Shown in pieces: positions 1,812 to 13,360 of a stretch of DNA of 19,241 nucleotides. The stretch lies in contig JBEQLE010000018.1 of assembly GCA_040326155.1 (NCBI GenBank), positions 41,826 to 61,066 on the forward strand, given 5' to 3'. Under the pieces are notes generated by a model that made no database searches, had not been told where the DNA came from, and saw nothing but the letters and a program-made list of their open reading frames with translations. Source of the DNA: Leptospirales bacterium. GTDB lineage: Bacteria; Spirochaetota; Leptospiria; Turneriellales; JAOUFE01. The translations under genes were made by a program, and so were the position numbers. The stretch's first letter is position 1. Each line of letters begins with the position of its first letter.

Positions 1812-2466
1812 CGGTATTCAGGAATTTCGAATCATTTCCTGCTCCCTTTTTATCGTCTGGTGATTTCATTGGTTTATCGGGTTGTTTTTCTGTAGTGTTT
1901 GTTGTTGTTGGAATATTTTCAGGAGTTCTCTCTATTGGAATATCACCCTTTTCTGTGGGCTCTCCAGCCATTTCGGTTTCAGGAGTGGGTATTTCGCTAT
2001 CTTCCCTTTTACCCGATTCTGTTTGTGGCAATTCTGGAAGCGCATCATTATTCGTGTTCTGAAATTTGGTATCATCTGTATTTCTATAAGGGTCTTCACC
2101 TAGCTCAAACCCTTCCGGGCGAGTGACAAACCCTTGTTTTTGCTGCTCTCTTATATAATCGGGTACCCGTTCGCCCTCAATATCCGATGACATTTCTTTG
2201 CTGTCAAAATCGAGAGGAAGAATTTCAAGCTCGTTTCGCTGCATATTCTCCTCAATAATTTGTTCTTTGTAAAACATATCAGAAACATCCTCAAAAAGTT
2301 GTTTCCCGCCAGGTTTCGCCGCAGCAGCGCCCATTTTAATACCATACGCGATAGCTACCACGCCAGCAACAGCGGCGAGCATAATGAAAGCCTTCTGGAT
2401 TATGTCTCGAATATGAACCGGGATTTTATCGATATACTTATCTATGAATTGCAAAACTTTGTTCAT
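1804..2466 (-). CDS. Hypothetical single-pass membrane protein with acidic, low-complexity C-terminal region (220 aa)
   Basis: Start reassigned from 2616 to ATG 2466 (MNKVLQF...). It has an SD-like AAGGGG upstream and avoids overlap with bshB1. One TM segment, AFIMLAAVAGVVAIAYGI, followed by an E/D/P/T/K-rich tail. Confidence 0.75.
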   Translation of the reverse strand: MNKVLQFIDKYIDKIPVHIRDIIQKAFIMLAAVAGVVAIAYGIKMGAAAAKPGGKQLFEDVSDMFYKEQIIEENMQRNELEILPLDFDSKEMSSDIEGERVPDYIREQQKQGFVTRPEGFELGEDPYRNTDDTKFQNTNNDALPELPQTESGKREDSEIPTPETEMAGEPTEKGDIPIERTPENIPTTTNTTEKQPDKPMKSPDDKKGAGNDSKFLNTDE

Positions 2467-2504
2467 TTTTCTAATTATCGCCCCTTTTTCGAGTGGCCTT
2501 ATTA

Positions 2505-2533
2505 AAAATACGCAAGTATCATAAAAAGTGCAA
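2505..2533 (-). promoter_or_regulatory. Putative sigma70 promoter for the membrane protein-TPR unit
   Basis: Minus strand TTGCAC (2533-2528), 17 nt spacer, TATTTT (2510-2505). Back-to-back with TTGACT at 2541 on the plus strand. Confidence 0.5.
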
Positions 2534-2540
2534 AAAAAGC

Positions 2541-2570
2541 TTGACTTCGGCCAATCCTGAGAAGCCATTT
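2541..2570 (+). promoter_or_regulatory. Putative sigma70 promoter for bshB1 (divergent; possibly leaderless)
   Basis: TTGACT at 2541-2546, 34 nt upstream of ATG 2575. The -10 is poor (GCCATT/CCATTT) and there is no SD. Confidence 0.35.
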
Positions 2571-2574
2571 TCTT

Positions 2575-3303
2575 ATGAATAAAATGGCTAAAAAGGTGAT
2601 GGCAATAGGAGCTCATCCCGATGATGTTGAATTTGCCATGGGTGGTACCATTACATCTATGATCGAGAATGGTTATGAGGTTATGATTCTTGATTTAACA
2701 AACGGAGAGCCAACACCGCATGGTAGCCCTGAAATAAGAGCCAAAGAGAGTAAAAAGGCCGCCCACCTGCTTGGTGTAACCAGAAAAACTTTAGAGTTTG
2801 AAAACCGTTTCTTATTCGACAATATCGACGTTCGAAAAGCCGTAGCCGGTGAAATACGTGAATTTCGCCCCGACATGCTATTTGTCCATTATCCAGATGA
2901 CGCCCACCCTGACCATTGGGCCGCTTCCATTCTATCGATGGCTTCTAGATTTTACGGTAAATTAAGTAAAGTCGACATTAAAGGGGAACGGTTTTTTGCG
3001 CCTCGCATATTTTATTTTTTTTCTGTCCATTTGCGCATAGCGCCGGTACCCGATTTTTGTCTCGATATTTCACAAACCTTCGACAAAAAGTTAAAAGCGG
3101 TACTGTCTTATGAATCACAATTTCACAACCTGCAAAATAAATATAAAACGGATAAGGAAGATAGCTCTAAAGAACAAGTTCTATCTAATTTTTTGAAAAC
3201 CCAGAATGCGTATTGGGGAAGTAAAATTGGCGTCGCTTACGCTGAACCTTTTTATTCGCCTGAAGTACTTGGTTTTCATAACTTAGATAATCTAGTCTTA
3301 TAA
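2575..3303 (+). CDS. bshB1: PIG-L family N-acetylglucosaminyl deacetylase, bacillithiol BshB1-like
   Basis: GAHPDDVE metal motif, DLTNGEPTPHGSPEIRAKE, DAHPDH, DISQTFDKKLKAVLSYESQF and GSKIGVAYAEPF, all typical of BshB1/LmbE deacetylases. Confidence 0.85.
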   Translation: MNKMAKKVMAIGAHPDDVEFAMGGTITSMIENGYEVMILDLTNGEPTPHGSPEIRAKESKKAAHLLGVTRKTLEFENRFLFDNIDVRKAVAGEIREFRPDMLFVHYPDDAHPDHWAASILSMASRFYGKLSKVDIKGERFFAPRIFYFFSVHLRIAPVPDFCLDISQTFDKKLKAVLSYESQFHNLQNKYKTDKEDSSKEQVLSNFLKTQNAYWGSKIGVAYAEPFYSPEVLGFHNLDNLVL

Positions 3304-3308
3304 AACGT

Positions 3309-4649
3309 ATGAGCCAAAAAGAGGATCTAACCGGGCCTAATCGTGAGATTTCTCAGATAAAATACCCAAAAAACATCCAGTCGATACGCACTGTTTTGCA
3401 GGGGCAGTTTACAAAAAAAATTCAAGCGAAACGTGGTTCACCCGTAATCGTTTCGGGGCACCAGGTCGGCGTTTTTCATCCTGGTATATTGGCTAAAGAG
3501 GTTTTGGCTGGCAAACTGGCCAAAGAGCAAAACGGCATAGCCATCACTCTTGTTCTTGATCACGACCCTACTCATGTCTATTTTAACTACCCTGACTGGA
3601 ATTTAAAAATGGACCACCACCGTTTGGTTAAAAAAGATTGTCATCTGGGCGATATTTTTTTAAAGAAAAAAGGTCTTGCCCGAATTCATTCGGAGCGGTG
3701 GCAATCTCATTTAATAGAATTGTCTAAAAACTGTGAACACTATTTGAACCGGGAAACAACGGAAAATGCCAGGCAAAGCATAGAGACCTTGCTGGATAAT
3801 CGAAACAAATACGATAATTTAATCGATTATCTGGTTTTCAGTCGTATGCAAGACCTTCAAAAAGAGAAGATAGAAATTTTCCCCGTTCGCACGAGTGACC
3901 TGATCGCAACCCCGGAGTGGAAAAACTTTGCCAATGATATTTATGAAAATGGTTCTCGCTTTCGTGAAATATACAATCGAGCTCTTTCTATGTATCGTAC
4001 AGAGCATGGAATTATTAATCATGCTCAACCAGTCCCCGATTTACATGAAGAAGAACTACCCTTTTGGATCTATACGAACCCTGAACTAGAAAGTCGTGAA
4101 AAAGCGTACAAAAATAATTTTGACGCTCAAAAGGCTCTGCCAAGAGCTATTACTTTAAGTTTATTTGTTCGCTTATACCTCTCGGATATTTTTATTCACG
4201 GAACAGGAGGGGCAAGGTATGATGTAGTCACGAATCAAATAATGCATGAATATTTTAATGTTTCGATTAGTCCATATATGGTGGAAACCAGAACTCTGCA
4301 AATTCCTCTTCTTAAAGATTCCACTTTGAATGAAATAAAAATGCTACCAACACTTTCAAATTGGACAACAGAGTATCGCCGTTTTCAATTTCACCCGGAA
4401 CGCAGCCTAAACAAAAATCACCCTTATAGACAAAAAAGAGCAGAATTGATAAAAGAGTTTAAAGTGCAAAAGGGAGCCAAGAAGAAGATACACGATGAAC
4501 TTGAGAAAAATCGAAAAACCATTCTGAATGATTTAAAACACGAAAATGAAACAAGGTTGGCGACAAGATCAAAAATTCTAGAATACGAAAAAGATCGCGA
4601 AGCTCTATATAATCGTACTTTTCCCTATTTTTTTTATGACTGGCGATAA
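3309..4649 (+). CDS. Divergent BshC-like protein (putative cysteine/amino-acid ligase, Rossmann/HUP fold)
   Basis: Starts 5 nt after bshB1. Motifs in BshC-like order: VIVSGHQVGVFHPGILAK (cf. TGQQxGxxxGP...K), LVLDHD (cf. EDHD), IFIHGTGGARYD (cf. FxxGPGExxY), then a basic helical/coiled-coil region and terminal NRTFPYFFY. The CDS is certain; the function is inferred. Confidence 0.6.
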   Translation: MSQKEDLTGPNREISQIKYPKNIQSIRTVLQGQFTKKIQAKRGSPVIVSGHQVGVFHPGILAKEVLAGKLAKEQNGIAITLVLDHDPTHVYFNYPDWNLKMDHHRLVKKDCHLGDIFLKKKGLARIHSERWQSHLIELSKNCEHYLNRETTENARQSIETLLDNRNKYDNLIDYLVFSRMQDLQKEKIEIFPVRTSDLIATPEWKNFANDIYENGSRFREIYNRALSMYRTEHGIINHAQPVPDLHEEELPFWIYTNPELESREKAYKNNFDAQKALPRAITLSLFVRLYLSDIFIHGTGGARYDVVTNQIMHEYFNVSISPYMVETRTLQIPLLKDSTLNEIKMLPTLSNWTTEYRRFQFHPERSLNKNHPYRQKRAELIKEFKVQKGAKKKIHDELEKNRKTILNDLKHENETRLATRSKILEYEKDREALYNRTFPYFFYDWR

Positions 4650-4746
4650 GATCACCTGCACTTTTCCTTTAAAGTCAGGGGAACTTTTAATTCTAACAAT
4701 GTTTATTCGTTTACAAACTGCTATTTAATATGTTTTTGATCGAATA

Positions 4747-5835
4747 GTGAAAAACCAATTATCAGTAAAGTTAGAGTCCAACTCATACACTATCCAATGG
4801 GATCCCGATTTTGACGCTCTGGCTGAGTGGGTTCTACGTAATAAAAACAAACAAAAGAATGGTCTAATTACGAATGAACTGGTTTATAGTTTATATAAAG
4901 ATAAAATAGCAAAACTTTTTCCAGATTTCGAGATTTTCACCATCCCTGATGGCGAAGCGCAAAAAAATATTCATACTGTAGAATCTTTGGCGCAACGTTT
5001 GCTTGAGTGCGGTTTTACCCGAAATTCTTGTTTATGGGCTTTGGGCGGCGGTGTAATTGGCGACATTACAGGTTTTTTAGCCTCTATATATATGCGCGGT
5101 ATCGATTATTTTCAAATACCAACTACTCTTTTATCTATGGTCGATAGTTCTGTTGGCGGTAAAACTGGTGTAAACTTACCCAAAGGTAAAAACATGATTG
5201 GGGCATTTTACCAGCCTCAAGGTGTATTTATAAATATAACTTTCTTAAACACACTCGAACAACAAGAGATTAAATGCGGTCTAAGTGAAATTATAAAAAG
5301 CGCCCTTATACTTGATAGTGAATTTTACGAATACATTGAAAATTCCTGTGAAAAAATTCTGGAAAAAGACCTGGATGTGTTTTCTCAGCTCTCTTATCGT
5401 TCTGTTGCCATAAAAGCCTTTGTGGTAGGGAAAGACGAAAAAGAACAAGGGCTTCGAGCCATCTTGAATCTAGGCCATACTCTTGCCCATGCGCTCGAAA
5501 GTCATTATGGTTATAAAGCTATAAAACATGGTGAAGCGGTTTCGGCCGGTATTCATTTTGCCACCCTTCTCTCTTCAAAAATAGAGGGCTTTTCGGACCA
5601 GAAAAGAGTAGAAAATCTTTTGGATGCTCTAAAATTAACTAGCCGGTTTTCCCAGCTGCCTGAAGAAAACCGTCCACAAATAGATACTTTAATACAATTC
5701 ATGAAAGGCGATAAGAAAAATATTGACAGTGATATTCGATTTGTTTTATTGAGGCAGATTGGAAATTGTAAATTACCTGAGAAAATCGCCGATAAAGAGA
5801 TATGGGAAATACTGGAAACATACCTAAAGAGCTAA
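4747..5835 (+). CDS. aroB: 3-dehydroquinate synthase
   Basis: GTG start. Motifs PDGEAQKN, ALGGGVIGDITGF, PTTLLSMVDSSVGGKTGVN, KNMIGAFYQP, LNLGHTLAHALE, HGEAV and DKK. Confidence 0.97.
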   Translation: MKNQLSVKLESNSYTIQWDPDFDALAEWVLRNKNKQKNGLITNELVYSLYKDKIAKLFPDFEIFTIPDGEAQKNIHTVESLAQRLLECGFTRNSCLWALGGGVIGDITGFLASIYMRGIDYFQIPTTLLSMVDSSVGGKTGVNLPKGKNMIGAFYQPQGVFINITFLNTLEQQEIKCGLSEIIKSALILDSEFYEYIENSCEKILEKDLDVFSQLSYRSVAIKAFVVGKDEKEQGLRAILNLGHTLAHALESHYGYKAIKHGEAVSAGIHFATLLSSKIEGFSDQKRVENLLDALKLTSRFSQLPEENRPQIDTLIQFMKGDKKNIDSDIRFVLLRQIGNCKLPEKIADKEIWEILETYLKS

Positions 5836-6257
5836 ATATAACCGTAATACACGGCCCGAACTTAAATATGCTGGGTCGACGCGAGAAATCGCATTACGGA
5901 GATTTCTCTTTGGCCGATCTTGAGAAATATCTAATAGACGATAATACAGAAGTCAACTTGACTTTTTTTCAAAGCAACTCTGAAGGTGAACTTGTTTCAT
6001 TTATTCAGAATTTGAAAAAGCAAGACGGCATAGTCATAAACGCAGGCGCTTATACACATACCAGTATCGCGATGCGAGACTCTTTTTTAAGCGTTCAAAT
6101 ACCATTTGTCGAAGTACATATTAGCAATGTTTATTCCAGAGAAGATTTTAGAAAAAAATCATACCTTGCAGATATTGCCGTAGGGGTAATTTCAGGGCTC
6201 GGCAAAGAAAGTTATAATTTGGCTATCAAATATTTTATATCTTGTAAGCGCCCATGA
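5802..6257 (+). CDS. aroQ: Type II 3-dehydroquinate dehydratase
   Basis: HGPNLNMLGRRE..HYG, QSNSEGEL, INAGAYTHTSIAMRD and EVHISNVYSREDFR. Overlaps aroB by 34 bp. Confidence 0.97.
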   Translation: MGNTGNIPKELNITVIHGPNLNMLGRREKSHYGDFSLADLEKYLIDDNTEVNLTFFQSNSEGELVSFIQNLKKQDGIVINAGAYTHTSIAMRDSFLSVQIPFVEVHISNVYSREDFRKKSYLADIAVGVISGLGKESYNLAIKYFISCKRP

Positions 6258-7540
6258 ACGACCTCGCCGTAAAAAATGAATTCGGTAAGTATATTCTCTC
6301 TGATTTGGGAGATAGAAAAGCATATATCTCAACGACAGAAAAACTTTCGAAATATTACATGGTGAAAGCGTTAAAACGCGACGCCGTGTTCATACAATCG
6401 AAATTAAAAACACTGCATGTTTTTCTGGAAAGTAACTTTAATAATTTAAACGACTTTTTAACTAAGCTTGATCTGCTCAGTGAATTTCTAGAAGAAAAAA
6501 ACAGTGCTGATTTTTCAAAATTTATGGGGAAATACTTTCTTTCTACGCTGGAAAAAGAGAAGGCAGCTATTTTAACAATTGAAGTTCCAAAAATCAGTTA
6601 CAAATTCGATAATCCCTATTATGCTCCCGGAAATGATATGCTGCTGCGCTTTGCGCAAGCTTTTCAAAAAGCTCCGCCCTTGTCCGCTCTACCCGAATCA
6701 TCATCTACAGATACCGACGCCGGTAAAGTTCCAGCACCAGTTAAAAAAATTATCGTAGTGACACCGGCAGACCCTATGGCGATGCCAGGAAAACATGTTC
6801 TCGAGCGTTTTACGACAGATTTTGCCTCGGCTGCAGTTCTTGATTTATCTAAAAAAGAAAAATCTGTGGAAACTTCAGTTACTAAACGGGTTGTAGAAAA
6901 GAAAACCAGCGTAGTGACTATCGATGCTTCCGATATGCCTGGTTTAATATTACTTAAAAAATTCGGTCCCCTGTTCCACGGTGCCCCGATTTTAAAAGAA
7001 GAAACAGAAGAAGATGCAAAAGTAACAATACCGTCTGCGGTACGCACCATTAGTTTTCAAATGTATGTAAATATTACAAACAAGATGACGCGCTTTTCTC
7101 GAAATAAAGATCAGAATGGTTACAAACAGTGGTACATTACTCTTTCAAAAGAACATAGAATTGCTCTTCAAATTAACAACTTAATTAATAAAGAAAAAGA
7201 CGGCCCGGTCCAATGGAATGCTTTTTTTCATAAAATTACTTATATGGAAAAAATAGATGTTATGCTTTTGGAACGAATTAAATTTGATATTGAATATTAC
7301 AAAATTCTACTTATAAAAATTAAAACTACCTTTCAAAAAGCCATTACTCAGGGCGAACCCATCGCTCAGGTCCAGGCTTTGTATGCTCCTCTCGTTAAAC
7401 TACTCGACCTGGCTTCTTCTTCGGAAGAAAAAGCAATTACGCTTCAAATGACGTTACTTCAATTATCGAACGCCAATGCGAAAGAATACTTAAAAACAGA
7501 ACTACTCAAACTAATAAGCGAATTTGATTCTCGTAGATAA
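6254..7540 (+). CDS. Hypothetical cytoplasmic protein (428 aa) with three central 20-aa repeats
   Basis: Long ORF with an ATGA overlap on the aroQ stop. No signal peptide or TM segment. Repeats xPGxxhLx(R/K)FxxxFxxAxxL at aa 124, 177 and 228. Confidence 0.85.
   Translation: MNDLAVKNEFGKYILSDLGDRKAYISTTEKLSKYYMVKALKRDAVFIQSKLKTLHVFLESNFNNLNDFLTKLDLLSEFLEEKNSADFSKFMGKYFLSTLEKEKAAILTIEVPKISYKFDNPYYAPGNDMLLRFAQAFQKAPPLSALPESSSTDTDAGKVPAPVKKIIVVTPADPMAMPGKHVLERFTTDFASAAVLDLSKKEKSVETSVTKRVVEKKTSVVTIDASDMPGLILLKKFGPLFHGAPILKEETEEDAKVTIPSAVRTISFQMYVNITNKMTRFSRNKDQNGYKQWYITLSKEHRIALQINNLINKEKDGPVQWNAFFHKITYMEKIDVMLLERIKFDIEYYKILLIKIKTTFQKAITQGEPIAQVQALYAPLVKLLDLASSSEEKAITLQMTLLQLSNANAKEYLKTELLKLISEFDSRR
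6623..6994 (+). repeat. Three protein-level repeats in the hypothetical gene (6623-6682, 6782-6841, 6935-6994)
   Basis: APGNDMLLRFAQAFQKAPPL / MPGKHVLERFTTDFASAAVL / MPGLILLKKFGPLFHGAPIL, with start-to-start spacing of 53 and 51 aa. Confidence 0.8.
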
Positions 7541-8328: not shown

Positions 8329-11300
8329 TTATGAAACTGTTAAAACTGGCTGGGTATTTACCGTTTCTTCTTTTTTGCGGCGAAGTTTTTCGGTATACTC
8401 TTTTAAGAAATAATCGATGGTTTCGACTCTAATCTTTATGGAACCGGTCGGATTATTTTCATCAATATCTTTAAAAGAAAAATGTGGAGTGTTTTGCGTC
8501 TCGACAATTTTTTCAATAGCAGAATATAAAGTGGAATCGTGTCCGCATTTAAAGCTGGAAAGTTCCAGTGGAATGAGGTTCGGGTGACGGGCTGTAAACT
8601 TCGCAGCCCAGATTTTCTGGGAACTGGCGGCTGAATATGAATTTTTCCAGACATCGGTAATATCCATGGGATGGTACTGCTCATCTCCGGGGTAGGAAAA
8701 CAGCTCTTTTAAAAACTCAGGATCTGTCGGAAGTGAATTTGTGGTCAAGATCGGATAACCCCGGCTCTGAAACTGTTCCAATATGGAATGATTCAGACCT
8801 TCATCATTATGATACACTCTTCCGAGCATTACAATGGCTACTCGCTTTTCTCGCTCCACCTGCCGAATAATTTGCAAGCCTTTTCTCTCCATGGATGATT
8901 TATATTTTTTAAGGGCATGAAAACCGGCTTTGACCGCAAAGTGGTTCTCTCGAATGTTCATATTAAACCGTTCACCAAAAGTATTGAAAAGTCCTTTTTC
9001 AGCAATGCCGGGAGAATCAAGAAACAATACGGGTTTTAAAAACTCTATATTTTTTTCGGCAAAAACATCCTTTTCTTTTGTATATGCTGAATAGGCCATT
9101 TCAGGGCCACCATTTGCAGTCGGACAAGCCCTGTGGTCAATGGCATTTACAATGCCCGAGTCGTAAGCGCTGATCATTGGAAAGAAAAGATAATTGTAAT
9201 GAGTTTGTTCCCATTTTTTTAGCAGGTTATAAATATGCGCCATAGATAACTTGGCAGGAAAACATGGATCGACAATACCGTTTCTAGAACCGTCTTTATA
9301 TAACTTTTCCGTAGAAAGATCACTGAAGATAATATTTTCAAAGGGAATACCCAAAAATTGAAAGTACGCCGTAAAAAATGGCTGTAACCCATACAGGTCT
9401 AAAGTACGCGGTATGGCAATTTTAATTTGATTACGATTTGTCTTCGCGCGATTCTTATTTGTTTTTTCCGCTTCCAGTTTCTTTTTATAAGAAAAAACTT
9501 TTTGCATGCGAGTTGCAGCGAGAGTTTGATCTTCCCAGACCACACGAGCCGCGACTTCAGATAGATTAAGATTCTCTTTCTTAATTTTCTCTGACTTCAA
9601 GCGAATTTCGCGTAGATCATTTTTTTCTTCCACTTCGCCTTTCTCACAAGGCGCAACAATAAAACGACGCGGTTGTGTTTCATGTTCCGTGTTAATATCG
9701 ATAAATGTACGAATGCATTTGTTTTTGCAAAAATTGCAACGAGTACTTTCATTGTATGTTGTTTTATACTCGATTGTTTCCGTTTCATCCAGGCCCAGAA
9801 ATGCTGTATTACCTTTGTTGGTTACCTTGGTTACCCTGGCCGCTTCTAGAGCCGCTCCTATAGCTCCACATACACTGGTGTGTCGGTGTATTATAACTTC
9901 CGGAGTTATGCCCGTCCCCTCAAATTTATCATGTAAATAGTCAACTTGAGATTTCGCCGCAGCAATATTTTTTTGCGTTCCACCCTGCAATACAAACCGT
10001 TTTCCCAAAATTGATGGGTTTGGTATCTGTGCTACATATTGCCAGATGTTTCGCGGTAAAACTTCCGCCAGGCCGGCCATAATTTCAGGGGCTTCCCAGC
10101 CCTGTCTTTGAAAATCTACGATATCTGTTTGTAAAAAAACTGCGCAACCATAACCAAATCTGGGGTTACGTTTCGCAGAAAAGGCAATCTGGGCATAATC
10201 TTCAACTTTATAACCAAACCCTTCTGCTGTGTTTTGCAAAAAGTATCCATTTCCTGCTGAACACTGGGTATTGAGTTTAAAATCTTTCACTTTTCCATTT
10301 TTAATATGAATTAATTTAATATCCTGTCCGCCGACATCTACAATAACGTCGATATCATTATAATAATGTTTTGCTGCAAGCGTATGCGCTACAGTTTCAA
10401 CAACAGCAACATCGCCGCCAACAATTTCTTTAATAAGGTCTTTCGCATAACCGGTCGTTCCAACGCCGAGTATTTCAAGTGTTGCGCCGGAACTCTCGAT
10501 GCTACTTCTCAGTGATTTTATAATTTCAATAACATCATCAATGGGGTTACCTTTCGATAATAGATACTCAGCGCCAATTAACTCTCCTTCGGGGTCAAGT
10601 AAAATGCCTTTGGTACTGGTAGAGCCGCCGTCTAAACCCAGATAAGCGATGACATTTTCTCCTTTGTAAAAAATGGGAGCTTCCCACTCAGGAGGAACAA
10701 ATTTATTCTTAAAATCGTAATACTCTGAGGTACGATCGGGCAAGTTCGAAGGTCCCTCAATGGATAAACGTCTTTTATCGATAAACGCCTTAAAATGTTC
10801 AGAGCCAGTGTACGTTGAGTTTACTTTATCAATATCATATTCACGGCGTACAAGAATGGACCCCATGGCTGCAAAATACTCACCCATATCAGGCGCATAA
10901 ATAAGTTCCTCAATAGAACGTGAAGCTACGTCCATTTTTTTTTCTTTCCATAGTAAAGAAAGATTATGGCGCCACGCTTCTTGCATGCCGGGTAAAAAAG
11001 TATTGGGTCCGCCAAGTAACATTACTTCGGGAGCCATCGTATTTCCGCGAGTCAAAACGCTGAGATTTTGTTGCACAATCGCGTCAAACAAAGATATCAT
11101 TAATTCATTTGGGGGAACGCCACTTTTTTGAAGAGAATTAATATCAGTTTCAGCAAACACACCGCATTTTCCAGCTACGGGATGAACCTTTTCAGGATCG
11201 TAGTGAATCTCTTTTAATTGATCAGGCGTGAGATTTAATTTCCCGGCAATTTTATCGATGACTGCGCCAGTACCGCCAGCGCATTTATCGTTCATGGTCA

Positions 11301-11703
11301 TTATCTTTTTAGTGCGATCTGTTTTTTCATCTCGCTTCAGTATAATAATTTTAGCATCTTGCCCGCCCAGCTCAATAACCGAAGAGACATTTGGGTATTG
11401 CGTTTGTACGGCGTTACTCACACAAAGGACTTCCTGAAAATATTGTGCGCCAACCGGTTCTACCAGGCCCGATCCACCGGAACCTGTAATCGAAATAGCA
11501 ATTTTGTCACTACCGGTATAAAACAGGTCGGGAAATTTAATTTCAAGATCGACAAGGTATTCCCAGAGCTTTTCAGCTTGCCGGGTTTCGTGTCTTTCAT
11601 AGCGCTGCCAGTGAGTTTTTAATTCACCATCTTCTTCTTCCTGAAAAACTCCTTTTACGGTAGTGGACCCAACATCGAGTCCAAGAAAATATTTTTTATC
11701 CAT
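8329..11703 (-). CDS. Tandem BadF/BadG/BcrA/BcrD (ASKHA) ATPase activator domains fused to a DUF2229-like reductase domain; PlsA/Ger-like
   Basis: Domain 1: GLDVGSTTVK, ITGSG, ELGGQDAK, MNDKCAGGTG, CGVFAETD. Domain 2: GLDGGSTSTK, GTTGY, ETVAH, DVGGQDIK, NTQCSAGNG, CAVFLQTD, QGGTQKN, GAIGAAL. Linker CNFCKNKC...PCEKG. C-terminal region IAIPR, CFPAKLSMAH, CPT, GRVYH, SFKCGHDS, IDEN. Start placed at ATG 11703, 1 nt after the upstream stop; 11730 is an alternative. Confidence 0.92.
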   Translation of the reverse strand: MDKKYFLGLDVGSTTVKGVFQEEEDGELKTHWQRYERHETRQAEKLWEYLVDLEIKFPDLFYTGSDKIAISITGSGGSGLVEPVGAQYFQEVLCVSNAVQTQYPNVSSVIELGGQDAKIIILKRDEKTDRTKKIMTMNDKCAGGTGAVIDKIAGKLNLTPDQLKEIHYDPEKVHPVAGKCGVFAETDINSLQKSGVPPNELMISLFDAIVQQNLSVLTRGNTMAPEVMLLGGPNTFLPGMQEAWRHNLSLLWKEKKMDVASRSIEELIYAPDMGEYFAAMGSILVRREYDIDKVNSTYTGSEHFKAFIDKRRLSIEGPSNLPDRTSEYYDFKNKFVPPEWEAPIFYKGENVIAYLGLDGGSTSTKGILLDPEGELIGAEYLLSKGNPIDDVIEIIKSLRSSIESSGATLEILGVGTTGYAKDLIKEIVGGDVAVVETVAHTLAAKHYYNDIDVIVDVGGQDIKLIHIKNGKVKDFKLNTQCSAGNGYFLQNTAEGFGYKVEDYAQIAFSAKRNPRFGYGCAVFLQTDIVDFQRQGWEAPEIMAGLAEVLPRNIWQYVAQIPNPSILGKRFVLQGGTQKNIAAAKSQVDYLHDKFEGTGITPEVIIHRHTSVCGAIGAALEAARVTKVTNKGNTAFLGLDETETIEYKTTYNESTRCNFCKNKCIRTFIDINTEHETQPRRFIVAPCEKGEVEEKNDLREIRLKSEKIKKENLNLSEVAARVVWEDQTLAATRMQKVFSYKKKLEAEKTNKNRAKTNRNQIKIAIPRTLDLYGLQPFFTAYFQFLGIPFENIIFSDLSTEKLYKDGSRNGIVDPCFPAKLSMAHIYNLLKKWEQTHYNYLFFPMISAYDSGIVNAIDHRACPTANGGPEMAYSAYTKEKDVFAEKNIEFLKPVLFLDSPGIAEKGLFNTFGERFNMNIRENHFAVKAGFHALKKYKSSMERKGLQIIRQVEREKRVAIVMLGRVYHNDEGLNHSILEQFQSRGYPILTTNSLPTDPEFLKELFSYPGDEQYHPMDITDVWKNSYSAASSQKIWAAKFTARHPNLIPLELSSFKCGHDSTLYSAIEKIVETQNTPHFSFKDIDENNPTGSIKIRVETIDYFLKEYTEKLRRKKEETVNTQPVLTVS

Positions 11704-11704
11704 A

Positions 11705-13360
11705 TTATAGTATTTTTCCTTTTTTGCCATTCATTGTCCAATAAAAATAATGGCTAAAATTCATTGCGTGACCTTTTTTTTCGGGAAATTTTTCAATAGC
11801 CGAAATGGGATTAGACATACTTTCTTTTAACTTGTTCCAGTCATCTAATGTATAATCGAATTCACCTAAAACCGCTTCAAGCTCATCGCGCATTTTTTCC
11901 CGGGCTTCACCCAAAGCCATCTGCACCCTGGAAAGAGCGTTAATCTTACCTTCACCTGAAGTTTCGACGGGTAAAAAAACCATATTGTCAAAATCTTCCA
12001 CAACTTTTGCTTGAATTGCATCTGAAATAGTCGAAGGCATACAACCAAACGGTTTTATCGATAAAACCATATGAGCTAATCTGTTTTTAGTATAATAAAT
12101 ATTTTTTGCAACTTCCAGAAAACCTTCACCGGAATCATATAACCGATCCATATATTTATCCCCAATTTTGGCAAGATACTCAATAGATGGAGTTTTACGT
12201 ACAAAACCTCCCATCCAGTCTGAGAAACGACTATAATAACGTCTGTAATACCAGTCGGCAAAGTCAATTTGCAGACGACTGACTTGAAATCTCCACTTTT
12301 TCTTTATAATCGAAATAGGGTTAAGCACAGAAAATTTATTGTCACCATTATTACCGGGTGAAATAAATTTTTCTTTTTCGAGACTTTTGGATAGCCACAA
12401 CAAATATGAAATCCAGGTACTGACTGGTTCTACAATAATTTCACAACCCTCTTCATGCAGATAAGAAAACATTTGGTAATTCCCGTCACCCTCGGTTAAG
12501 GCAGCCCAGAATTCTCCTGTAATTTTGACTACAGGTTTTGGGTTCATATAATCTACTTTTATATTTGCTATTTTTTGTTTACAGATTTCAAGAGCAGTTT
12601 TAATTTCGCCAGATTTTTTCTGATCTATTAAATTAACAATGATATCACCCAGGCCGCTTTTCAACAATTTTCTGGTTAATTTGCTTTCTAATTTTCTCAA
12701 TGGAGTTTTTCTGGAAAGATGTTCAATAACGATAGATTTACACTCTTTATAGACTTTTTCAGTTTCACCGGCATTTACTTCATATGGTTGAACTCTATAC
12801 CTCATGGCATTTAGAATATCGCCTACCATGACAGCATTTAAAATTGTACGATAAAACTCTAGATCCATTTTGATGCCAACATCATCACTGCTTGACTCCA
12901 TCCCTTCTCCGGTAGAGTTAATTAAGATCATCCGAAAGCCATGATAACCCGCTTTTTCTAAAGCATTCTGGTATTGGTATTCATACATACCAAAACGACA
13001 TGGTCCGCAAGAGCTGGCAAAAAAGAAGGCATAGTTTTCGACAATTTCCTGGGCGCTTAGCCCCTCTTTTCGAAGATTTTCAAGATAATGAAGTAAATTA
13101 CCTACCACAAAATAGGTTGGACTGCAAAGTCCAGAATCGCAAAACTCTTTACCACGTTGCATGGACTCATTGCGAGGTATGGGCAAAGCGGATGTATTAT
13201 AACCTAACGCACAAAAACTAGCCGCAATAATCTCATCAATGGCATTTGAAAGTCCGCCAACAAGGAACTTCATGTTCTTTTTTTTATTTGTGCTGAGCCT
13301 GGCAGGCTCTACTCGACGATAAGGAATCGATTTATTTTTTTCAGCGAAGGTGTTTTCCAA
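11705..13360 (-). CDS. 2-hydroxyacyl-CoA dehydratase (HgdAB/D)-like Fe-S reductase subunit; PlsR-like
   Basis: TTG start. Motifs GLCSPTYFVVGNL, SSCGPCRFGMYE, KPVVKITGEFW, GEGFLEV, KPFGCMPS and ETSGEG..NALSRVQMAL. Directly coupled to the activator gene. Confidence 0.88.
   Translation of the reverse strand: MENTFAEKNKSIPYRRVEPARLSTNKKKNMKFLVGGLSNAIDEIIAASFCALGYNTSALPIPRNESMQRGKEFCDSGLCSPTYFVVGNLLHYLENLRKEGLSAQEIVENYAFFFASSCGPCRFGMYEYQYQNALEKAGYHGFRMILINSTGEGMESSSDDVGIKMDLEFYRTILNAVMVGDILNAMRYRVQPYEVNAGETEKVYKECKSIVIEHLSRKTPLRKLESKLTRKLLKSGLGDIIVNLIDQKKSGEIKTALEICKQKIANIKVDYMNPKPVVKITGEFWAALTEGDGNYQMFSYLHEEGCEIIVEPVSTWISYLLWLSKSLEKEKFISPGNNGDNKFSVLNPISIIKKKWRFQVSRLQIDFADWYYRRYYSRFSDWMGGFVRKTPSIEYLAKIGDKYMDRLYDSGEGFLEVAKNIYYTKNRLAHMVLSIKPFGCMPSTISDAIQAKVVEDFDNMVFLPVETSGEGKINALSRVQMALGEAREKMRDELEAVLGEFDYTLDDWNKLKESMSNPISAIEKFPEKKGHAMNFSHYFYWTMNGKKGKIL

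Follow-up and report, generated by a model that had tools for sequence, protein, structure and literature searches.

Which pathway does a BshB1-like deacetylase serve when its gene lies beside that of a protein recognized by no family library? The question is raised by a stretch of 19,241 nucleotides (nt) from a Leptospirales bacterium of the Spirochaetota (the window; positions 41,826 to 61,066 of the forward strand of contig JBEQLE010000018.1, assembly GCA_040326155.1), in which a deacetylase gene of the bacillithiol type is followed by an open reading frame (ORF) for a protein of 446 amino acids (aa). A preliminary description of this DNA had proposed that the second protein represents an alternative family of BshC-like ligases paired with BshB1. 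That proposal is supported by the fold of the protein, by its linkage to bshB1-like genes and by mutual exclusion with bshC; the ligation chemistry is part of the proposal. We consider it probable that a module comprising a family 2 glycosyltransferase (GT2), the BshB1-like deacetylase and the BshC-like protein stands in for BshA, BshB and BshC, and that it would make a bacillithiol-like aminoacyl-aminosugar. The three features of the window on which the analysis centres are the following.

2575–3303, + strand: BshB1-type PIG-L/LmbE N-deacetylase of 242 aa, assigned by matches to PF02585 and TIGR04001
3304–3308, + strand: intergenic spacer of 5 nt, read from the sequence and suggesting co-transcription
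3309–4649, + strand: 446-aa member of an unnamed BshC-like family, a putative ligase acting on the deacetylated aminosugar, assigned by fold and profile alignment

The deacetylase matches the Pfam family PF02585 (PIG-L) with 88.1 bits and the NCBIfam model TIGR04001 (BshB1) with 188.4 bits, narrowly above the cut-off of 182.5. Its translation contains the sequences AHPDD and HPDH; AHPDD and HxxH are the metal-binding motifs of the PIG-L/LmbE deacetylases. The stop codon TAA occupies 3301–3303, and after 5 nt the ATG of the putative ligase gene begins at 3309; both ORFs and their spacing are thus as first described. Promoter and terminator sites in the region 2300–4900 were no more numerous than in shuffled sequences, and the short spacing is the sole local sign suggesting co-transcription of the two genes. 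A search of sequencing runs listed none of RNA, and two of DNA with small shares (0.08 and 0.05).

Kinship of the 446-aa protein with BshC

Comparison with sequence libraries returned very little for the 446-aa protein. Nothing useful was found in Pfam or NCBIfam at E ≤ 10 (only PAS_2 at E 0.12), no aminoacyl-tRNA synthetase (aaRS) family was matched, and a phmmer search of Protein Data Bank (PDB) sequences gave zero matches. A profile made from an alignment of 44 family members (A1) gave only coiled-coil noise against PDB sequences (E 0.33–6), and the 44 members scanned against Pfam had no family in common. A word-indexed search for homologues yielded 45 proteins, and no precomputed Pfam domain is recorded for any of them; a second search of this kind using the alignment added four (P0188–P0191), none of them annotated as BshC. 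The few named homologues come from Spirochaetia, Lacipirellulaceae and metagenome bins of Actinobacteria. The family is nonetheless large; phmmer against 1.84 billion representatives of clusters at 50% identity retrieved 2569 proteins at E ≤ 1e-3, many of which are 520–560 aa in length; 1695 of the 2569 are at E ≤ 1e-10.

The predicted structure is more informative. The AlphaFold2 model calculated with A1 has a mean predicted local distance difference score (pLDDT) of 94.0 and a predicted template modelling (TM) score of 0.89. Foldseek against the PDB placed 4wbd, i.e. BshC (YllA) of Bacillus subtilis, first (E 3.7e-10, TM-score 0.50 by query), the runner-up being class I lysyl-tRNA synthetase (LysRS; E 5.3e-6), followed by other class I aaRS. 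With VIA-align, run on 48,161 representative chains, 4wbd_A was again at the top, with Z 22.7 and 403 of 446 residues aligned (root-mean-square deviation 7.0). The preliminary description had proposed such a comparison as a check on its idea, and the order of the matches agrees with it: BshC is followed by LysRS (1irx; Z 16.0 over 249 residues), MshC (3c8z; the much weaker Z of 9.7) and cysteinyl-tRNA synthetase (CysRS; 9.4), with other HUP-fold proteins (PanC and universal stress proteins) at Z 6.5–7.3. The model comprises a Rossmann-like HUP catalytic domain and a C-terminal helical/coiled-coil part, comparable in overall architecture to the core of 4wbd with its connective-peptide inserts and coiled-coil. 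The Rossmann-like catalytic core is shared with the class I aaRS; unlike these, the family has no KMSKS motif and no anticodon-binding domain was matched.

In a structure search of the ESM Atlas the nearest clusters were unnamed and mostly from Planctomycetota, and a canonical BshC cluster appeared further down with a TM-score of 0.74 over 409 residues. Between these lay archaeal clusters from Nitrososphaerota (543–607 aa), only 14–49% of whose members carry PF10079; they are structurally intermediate between the unnamed family and canonical BshC.

It had been pointed out that the motifs of the protein follow the order of those in BshC and differ at key positions. All are present, i.e. GHQ (50–52), HPG (57–59), LDHD (83–86) and HGTGGARYD (297–305). 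The BshC motifs with which they were compared are also real, since five canonical BshC sequences from the same phylum give the consensus TGQQCGxLTGPLYTIYK, ASEDHD and AGPGEIAY. The two sets can be aligned. Against 14 spirochaete BshC sequences, a set that takes in forms of 408–476 aa from genomes with complete bacillithiol (BSH) pathways, hhalign gave 71.7% (E 3.5e-5) in an alignment of 367 columns that spans almost the whole length. There are 19 invariant columns in A1 (G50, H51, Q52, G59, K63, D84, D86, P95, E249, P251, W253, R263, R288, F295, H297, G298, G300, Y304 and R436), and 13 of them align with positions at which BshC, too, is invariant. The residue is identical in 11 of these pairs (G50–G99, Q52–Q101, G59–G107, K63–K114, D84–D143, D86–D145, R263–R294, R288–R338, G298–G354, Y304–Y360 and R436–R504) and substituted in the other two (H51–Q100 and W253–F287). 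By this alignment the motifs correspond in position as had been proposed. The columns in common cover the positions of G-x-Q, a lysine, D-H-D, G-x-G-x-x-x-Y and three arginine residues. The family differs in having H51 for Q100, H57-P58-G59 for T106-G107-P108 and G301 for E357, and in its own invariant E249-x-P251-x-W253 and H297. By DSSP of the model the conserved residues sit in loops after strands 46–49, 77–82 and 294–297; this would be the sheet's C-terminal edge, at which nucleotide is bound in enzymes of the HUP fold.

The protein was also described as shorter than a typical BshC. This holds against the canonical length of 520–541 aa, but length alone means little because BshC of 408–476 aa occurs in genomes with complete BSH pathways. 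We note that in our phylum sample such forms (L105 and L106–L113) score below the cut-off of TIGR03998, often as two partial matches. Their genomes have BshA above its cut-off and a BshB1-like gene (above cut-off in most), in several cases with BshC beside them, so that the curated cut-off of TIGR03998 misses BshC variants that look to be working.

Judged from profile alignment and the predicted fold, the 446-aa protein is a homologue, though a highly divergent one, of BshC (TIGR03998/PF10079 and PF24850), from a large family that is absent from current libraries.

Distribution and partners of the family

The distribution of the family was examined in 151 genomes of the Spirochaetota and 151 of the Planctomycetota. 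Related genomes are not independent, and the figures are counts rather than statistics.

The family is found in 11 of the 151 spirochaete genomes, spread over five taxonomic families, and all 11 carriers have a BshB1-like deacetylase. In this sample TIGR03998 has a match in 17 genomes at E ≤ 1e-3, none of them a carrier; the match is strong (E ≤ 1e-20) in 14, out of 140 non-carriers. The genomes with BshA above cut-off are exactly the 14 with a strong BshC match, and again no carrier is among them. In the Planctomycetota 24 of 151 genomes carry the family, and TIGR03998 matches 79 (E ≤ 1e-10; 34 above cut-off), i.e. 79 of the 127 non-carriers and none of the 24 carriers. In the five planctomycete carriers that were tested, BshB1 was above its cut-off in all (201.7–216.6 bits), BshC was found in none and BshA was above its cut-off in none. 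The mutual exclusion with canonical bshC that had been anticipated is therefore seen with zero overlap in two phyla.

The expectation of co-occurrence with bshA and bshB was borne out for one gene and not for the other; a bshB1-like gene is present and adjacent, whereas bshA above cut-off is missing from all 11 spirochaete carriers. The absence of bshA had been observed for the window, and it extends to the genome from which the window comes (94.66% complete), where the best match to TIGR03999 has 90.8 bits against a cut-off of 273.7. The preliminary description had counted a genome lacking bshA as evidence against its idea, and taken literally that is the result. The idea of a pathway survives because a specific GT2 co-occurs perfectly with the putative ligase, usually as its direct neighbour.

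This GT2 was sought with a profile built from planctomycete sequences only. The 11 best matches in the spirochaete sample (161–268 bits, the next having 126) are exactly the 11 carriers. The 26 best in the Planctomycetota are the 24 carriers and two genomes with BshC, a count that is partly circular because the profile derives from carriers of that phylum. Overall, 35 of 35 carriers have the GT2. The two exceptional genomes (G323 and G303) combine it with a BshC of the TIGR03998 class and lack BshA above cut-off; in G323 the GT2 gene adjoins that of BshC (G323:C1:2952016-2954297; 319 bits), and in G303 the two are unlinked. By comparison, three planctomycete BshC genomes without the GT2 all have BshA (491–540 bits).

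The arrangement of the genes is consistent with a common function. It had been suggested that homologues should lie beside bsh genes, and this was found; a BshB1-like gene is directly upstream of the putative ligase gene in 10 of the 11 spirochaete carriers, the genome of the eleventh being fragmented, and in all three other genomes of the same family as the window (TIGR04001 173.9–185.8 bits), while the downstream genes differ among those three. In 8 of the 11 carriers GT2, deacetylase and ligase genes are contiguous in that order on one strand. Five members of the family are short (L094–L098, from G167, G160, G174, G114 and G074 of family f15; 344–378 aa). They cover only profile positions ~73–399 and so are without the C-terminal helical/coiled-coil part, and nonetheless lie within GT2–deacetylase–ligase clusters.

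Stretches matching the family number at least 589 with a narrowed alignment and were sampled only. The planctomycete loci are organized differently. A PIG-L gene lies within 7 kb in only 1 of 80 loci. Among the 78 that could be analysed, a GT2 of ~270 aa is found at −1 on the same strand in 57, and at +1 in 38 an acetyltransferase of the GNAT class, ~475 aa in length, with Acetyltransf_9 and sometimes also SCP2_2, i.e. an Eis-like architecture. A set of 80 diverse metagenome loci included 39 with full flanks; of these, 35 have the GT2 gene upstream, 13 have a PIG-L gene as direct neighbour of the ligase gene, on one side or the other, and 5 have the GNAT. Other recurring neighbours (redox enzymes, flippases and GT-C glycosyltransferases) were sought in the 78 planctomycete and 80 metagenome loci, and only GT2, PIG-L and GNAT recur. 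A secreted-looking protein of 965 aa is encoded upstream in 18 planctomycete loci. A further cluster at −1 on the opposite strand was rejected; it looks like antisense ORFs of the GT2 gene in DNA of high GC content.

Other features of the window can be noted briefly. A divergent ORF at 1804–2616 (− strand), with an N-terminal domain of the LIC_11485 family, is also upstream of the deacetylase gene in the three other genomes of the same family (L005, L007 and L008). It overlaps the start of the deacetylase ORF by 42 nt (2575–2616), and for this reason translation of the deacetylase may in fact begin at an ATG inside the ORF, a few codons further on. At 6254–7540 (+ strand), directly after aroB–aroQ, lies a 428-aa ORF that has no match in Pfam or NCBIfam and none to a hidden Markov model of the planctomycete GNAT partners. 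The region 8329–13360 (− strand) encodes a 1133-aa fusion of two BcrAD_BadFG activase domains and DUF2229, preceded by a 551-aa ORF that is without a family match and overlaps it by 26 nt.

A proposed pathway and its alternatives

The analysis shows that the protein is related to BshC in sequence and fold, that columns of the active site are conserved, that the genes are linked and co-occur, and that they exclude bshA and bshC. From this we infer in which order the steps run, which donor and acceptor serve the first of them, which amino acid is added, that ATP is used and that the product may be a thiol, as follows. A soluble, cytoplasmic GT2 would attach an N-acetylhexosamine, probably N-acetylglucosamine (GlcNAc) from its uridine diphosphate derivative, to a small and probably anionic acceptor. 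The BshB1-like deacetylase (2575–3303) would free the 2-amino group, and the BshC-like enzyme (3309–4649) would acylate that amine with an amino acid whose activation is probably ATP-dependent. If BshC and MshC are taken as guides, the foremost candidate for the amino acid is cysteine. In the Planctomycetota the product would then be N-acetylated by the downstream Eis-like GNAT, in the manner of MshD in the mycothiol pathway. Because the module replaces BshA, BshB and BshC where bshA and bshC are absent, the product is most likely bacillithiol-like, differing in glycosidic linkage, aglycone or both.

The active site offers two indications of mechanism. The three arginine residues in common with BshC suggest an anionic substrate. 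H57-x-G59 is near-invariant, and by DSSP of the model it lies at the N-terminal end of the first helix beyond strand 1, a position that we take to be where class I enzymes carry HIGH. Conventional use of ATP is suggested because the family keeps H-x-G at this position where BshC has T-G-P.

The scheme has the logic of the mycothiol pathway (MshA–MshB–MshC–MshD), in which a glycosyltransferase, a PIG-L-family deacetylase, a ligase resembling class I aaRS and a GNAT act, and the GT2–ligase–GNAT operon of Planctomycetota mirrors that pathway. It differs in that the first enzyme is a GT2 where MshA belongs to glycosyltransferase family 4 (GT4), and in that the GNAT is Eis-like (Acetyltransf_9 and SCP2_2) rather than MshD. 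The closer parallel is with bacillithiol, since like BshC the putative ligase is encoded next to a BshB1-type deacetylase; here, though, the partner is a GT2 and not the GT4 enzyme BshA, and the ligase gene of Planctomycetota is followed by one for a GNAT.

A thiol product is plausible. That the module makes a previously unknown low-molecular-weight thiol, i.e. a cysteinyl-glucosamine with a linkage or aglycone other than that of bacillithiol, N-acetylated by the linked GNAT in Planctomycetota and serving as the principal redox buffer in several lineages of spirochaetes and in Planctomycetota of the Pirellulales type, is a possibility that we advance tentatively.

A number of observations weigh against the proposed pathway, and they are set out here with the alternatives on which they bear. 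The first group concerns the GT2. In the genome from which the window comes its gene is at G000:C129:3579-4445, recognized by the planctomycete profile with 160.7 bits (the next GT2 having 74.9); it is unlinked to the genes of the window and has unrelated neighbours on contig C129, lying next to lexA and a phosphopentomutase-like gene and near lpxA, which is on the opposite strand. The best NCBIfam match of the GT2 is PpgS (94.6–95.5 bits against a cut-off of 370), followed by AglJ, dolichyl-phosphate hexose transferase and ArnC, and the best fold matches of its model (pLDDT 87.7) are ArnC (E 3.5e-10, TM-score 0.62), then GtrB and DPMS. Since its nearest structures and its best NCBIfam match are polyprenyl-phosphate glycosyltransferases, a lipid-linked route fits the GT2 as well. 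In such an envelope modification the GT2 would make polyprenyl-phosphate-N-acetylhexosamine, which would be deacetylated by the PIG-L protein and aminoacylated by the BshC-like protein before flipping and transfer to a surface glycan. The founder of the PIG-L family indeed acts on a lipid-linked GlcNAc (GlcNAc-phosphatidylinositol).

We nevertheless regard the lipid-linked route as unlikely. None of the four module proteins has a predicted transmembrane segment, and neither a flippase nor a GT-C gene recurs beside the module. MpgS and GpgS, which are soluble and use a soluble acid as acceptor, match the GT2 almost equally (E 1e-8 to 6e-8, TM-scores 0.54–0.58); all of these enzymes have the GT-A fold in common with the partner GT2, which scores far below the cut-off of every one of their families. 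Moreover, the deacetylase scores at the level of the BshB1 equivalog, and the strictness with which bshA and bshC are excluded suggests that a cytoplasmic thiol pathway has been replaced.

The second point is the stereochemistry of the glycoside. GT2 enzymes invert the anomeric configuration. Bacillithiol needs the alpha linkage that is formed with retention by the GT4 enzyme BshA, whose mechanism is described in a passage of PMC5790435. Because of the inversion the glycoside should differ from alpha-GlcNAc-malate, and a beta-linked product of the GT2 should differ from the alpha-linked substrate of BshB. This also bears on the idea that ordinary bacillithiol is made by non-orthologous parts, the GT2 producing GlcNAc-malate and the 446-aa protein being a fast-evolving orthologue of BshC. 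The BshB1 scores of the deacetylase, above cut-off both here and in the five planctomycete carriers, would be accounted for in this way, as would the absence of bshC from all carriers and the two genomes that pair the GT2 with a TIGR03998-class BshC and no BshA. We think it quite improbable, however, given the need for a retained alpha linkage. In addition, Q100, E148 and E357, which are invariant in BshC, are replaced by H51, T88 and G301, P95, E249, P251, F295 and H297 are invariants specific to the family, and the planctomycete GNAT has no counterpart in the synthesis of bacillithiol.

Accessory genes were sought as a further sign of bacillithiol. A full-length YpdA/Bdr-like flavoprotein is encoded in the genome of the window at G000:C93:5512-6483, matching TIGR04018 with 305.3 bits against a cut-off of 339.9. 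A reductase of this kind would suit ordinary bacillithiol, but the YpdA type occurs in only 1 of the 11 carriers, and there below the cut-off, with no co-occurrence with the family in the other carriers; in the BSH genomes it is found in 5 of 14. YtxJ and YphP/YqiW were sought in the genome of the window and not found. The bacillithiol accessory genes thus do not track the family, which counts against the proposed pathway, and as a test of thiol function they give no support either way.

The remaining points concern the putative ligase. TIGR03998 and PF10079 do not detect the 446-aa protein, TIGR03998 finds nothing in the entire genome, and when A1 was compared by hhalign with the five canonical BshC sequences only, the match was weak (11.4%, E 0.0026). 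In MshC and CysRS a zinc site of conserved cysteine residues binds the cysteine substrate. No cysteine is present among the invariant or near-invariant columns of A1, so a zinc–thiolate site made of cysteines, of the CysRS/MshC type, is unavailable to the family. Lastly, the reaction of BshC is in one statement of PMC5790435 "yet to be reconstituted in vitro". As BshC itself is without known biochemical activity, the label of ligase is inherited from an unproven assignment. The want of an invariant cysteine, the pattern of the accessory genes and this state of the BshC reaction also weigh against a thiol as product.

The missing cysteine and the unproven assignment of BshC, together with the behaviour of the accessory genes and the presence of PanC and universal stress proteins among the fold matches, would suit a BshC-like protein with some other HUP activity (nucleotidyl transfer, regulation or scaffolding) that is not the ligase of the pathway, the product being a non-thiol aminosugar glycoside such as a compatible solute. 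We find this distinctly unlikely. The match to BshC extends over the whole length and its Z of 22.7 far exceeds those of the other HUP proteins, the active-site columns are common to the family and BshC, and a deacetylase that exposes an amine is encoded immediately before this gene, which is the arrangement of the bacillithiol and mycothiol pathways.

Consequences for the study of bacterial thiols

The literature was searched for a variant with GT2, BshB and a BshC-like protein, and no description was found. At the level of genomics, our analysis supports a second, previously undescribed version of the bacillithiol/mycothiol type of pathway, running through an unannotated enzyme family, the product and chemistry of which would be those proposed above.

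No bacterial thiols are regarded as more widespread than those of the bacillithiol type. Their producers have been surveyed by BLAST (as set out in part of PMC6282198), and a survey of 2025 still relies on BLAST with BshA, BshB and BshC (according to a passage of PMC12719100). Surveys based on homology to these three proteins would miss both the unnamed ligase family and its GT2 partner. A statement of 2018 in PMC6282198 gives the Planctomycetota as having no predicted low-molecular-weight thiol; it is dated, because many of them carry BshC of the TIGR03998 class (79 of 151).

Comparison of two divergent versions of the enzyme provides a fresh handle on the actual function of BshC. If the family is indeed a conventional ATP-dependent ligase, reconstitution in vitro would be feasible and could expose the reaction of BshC itself.

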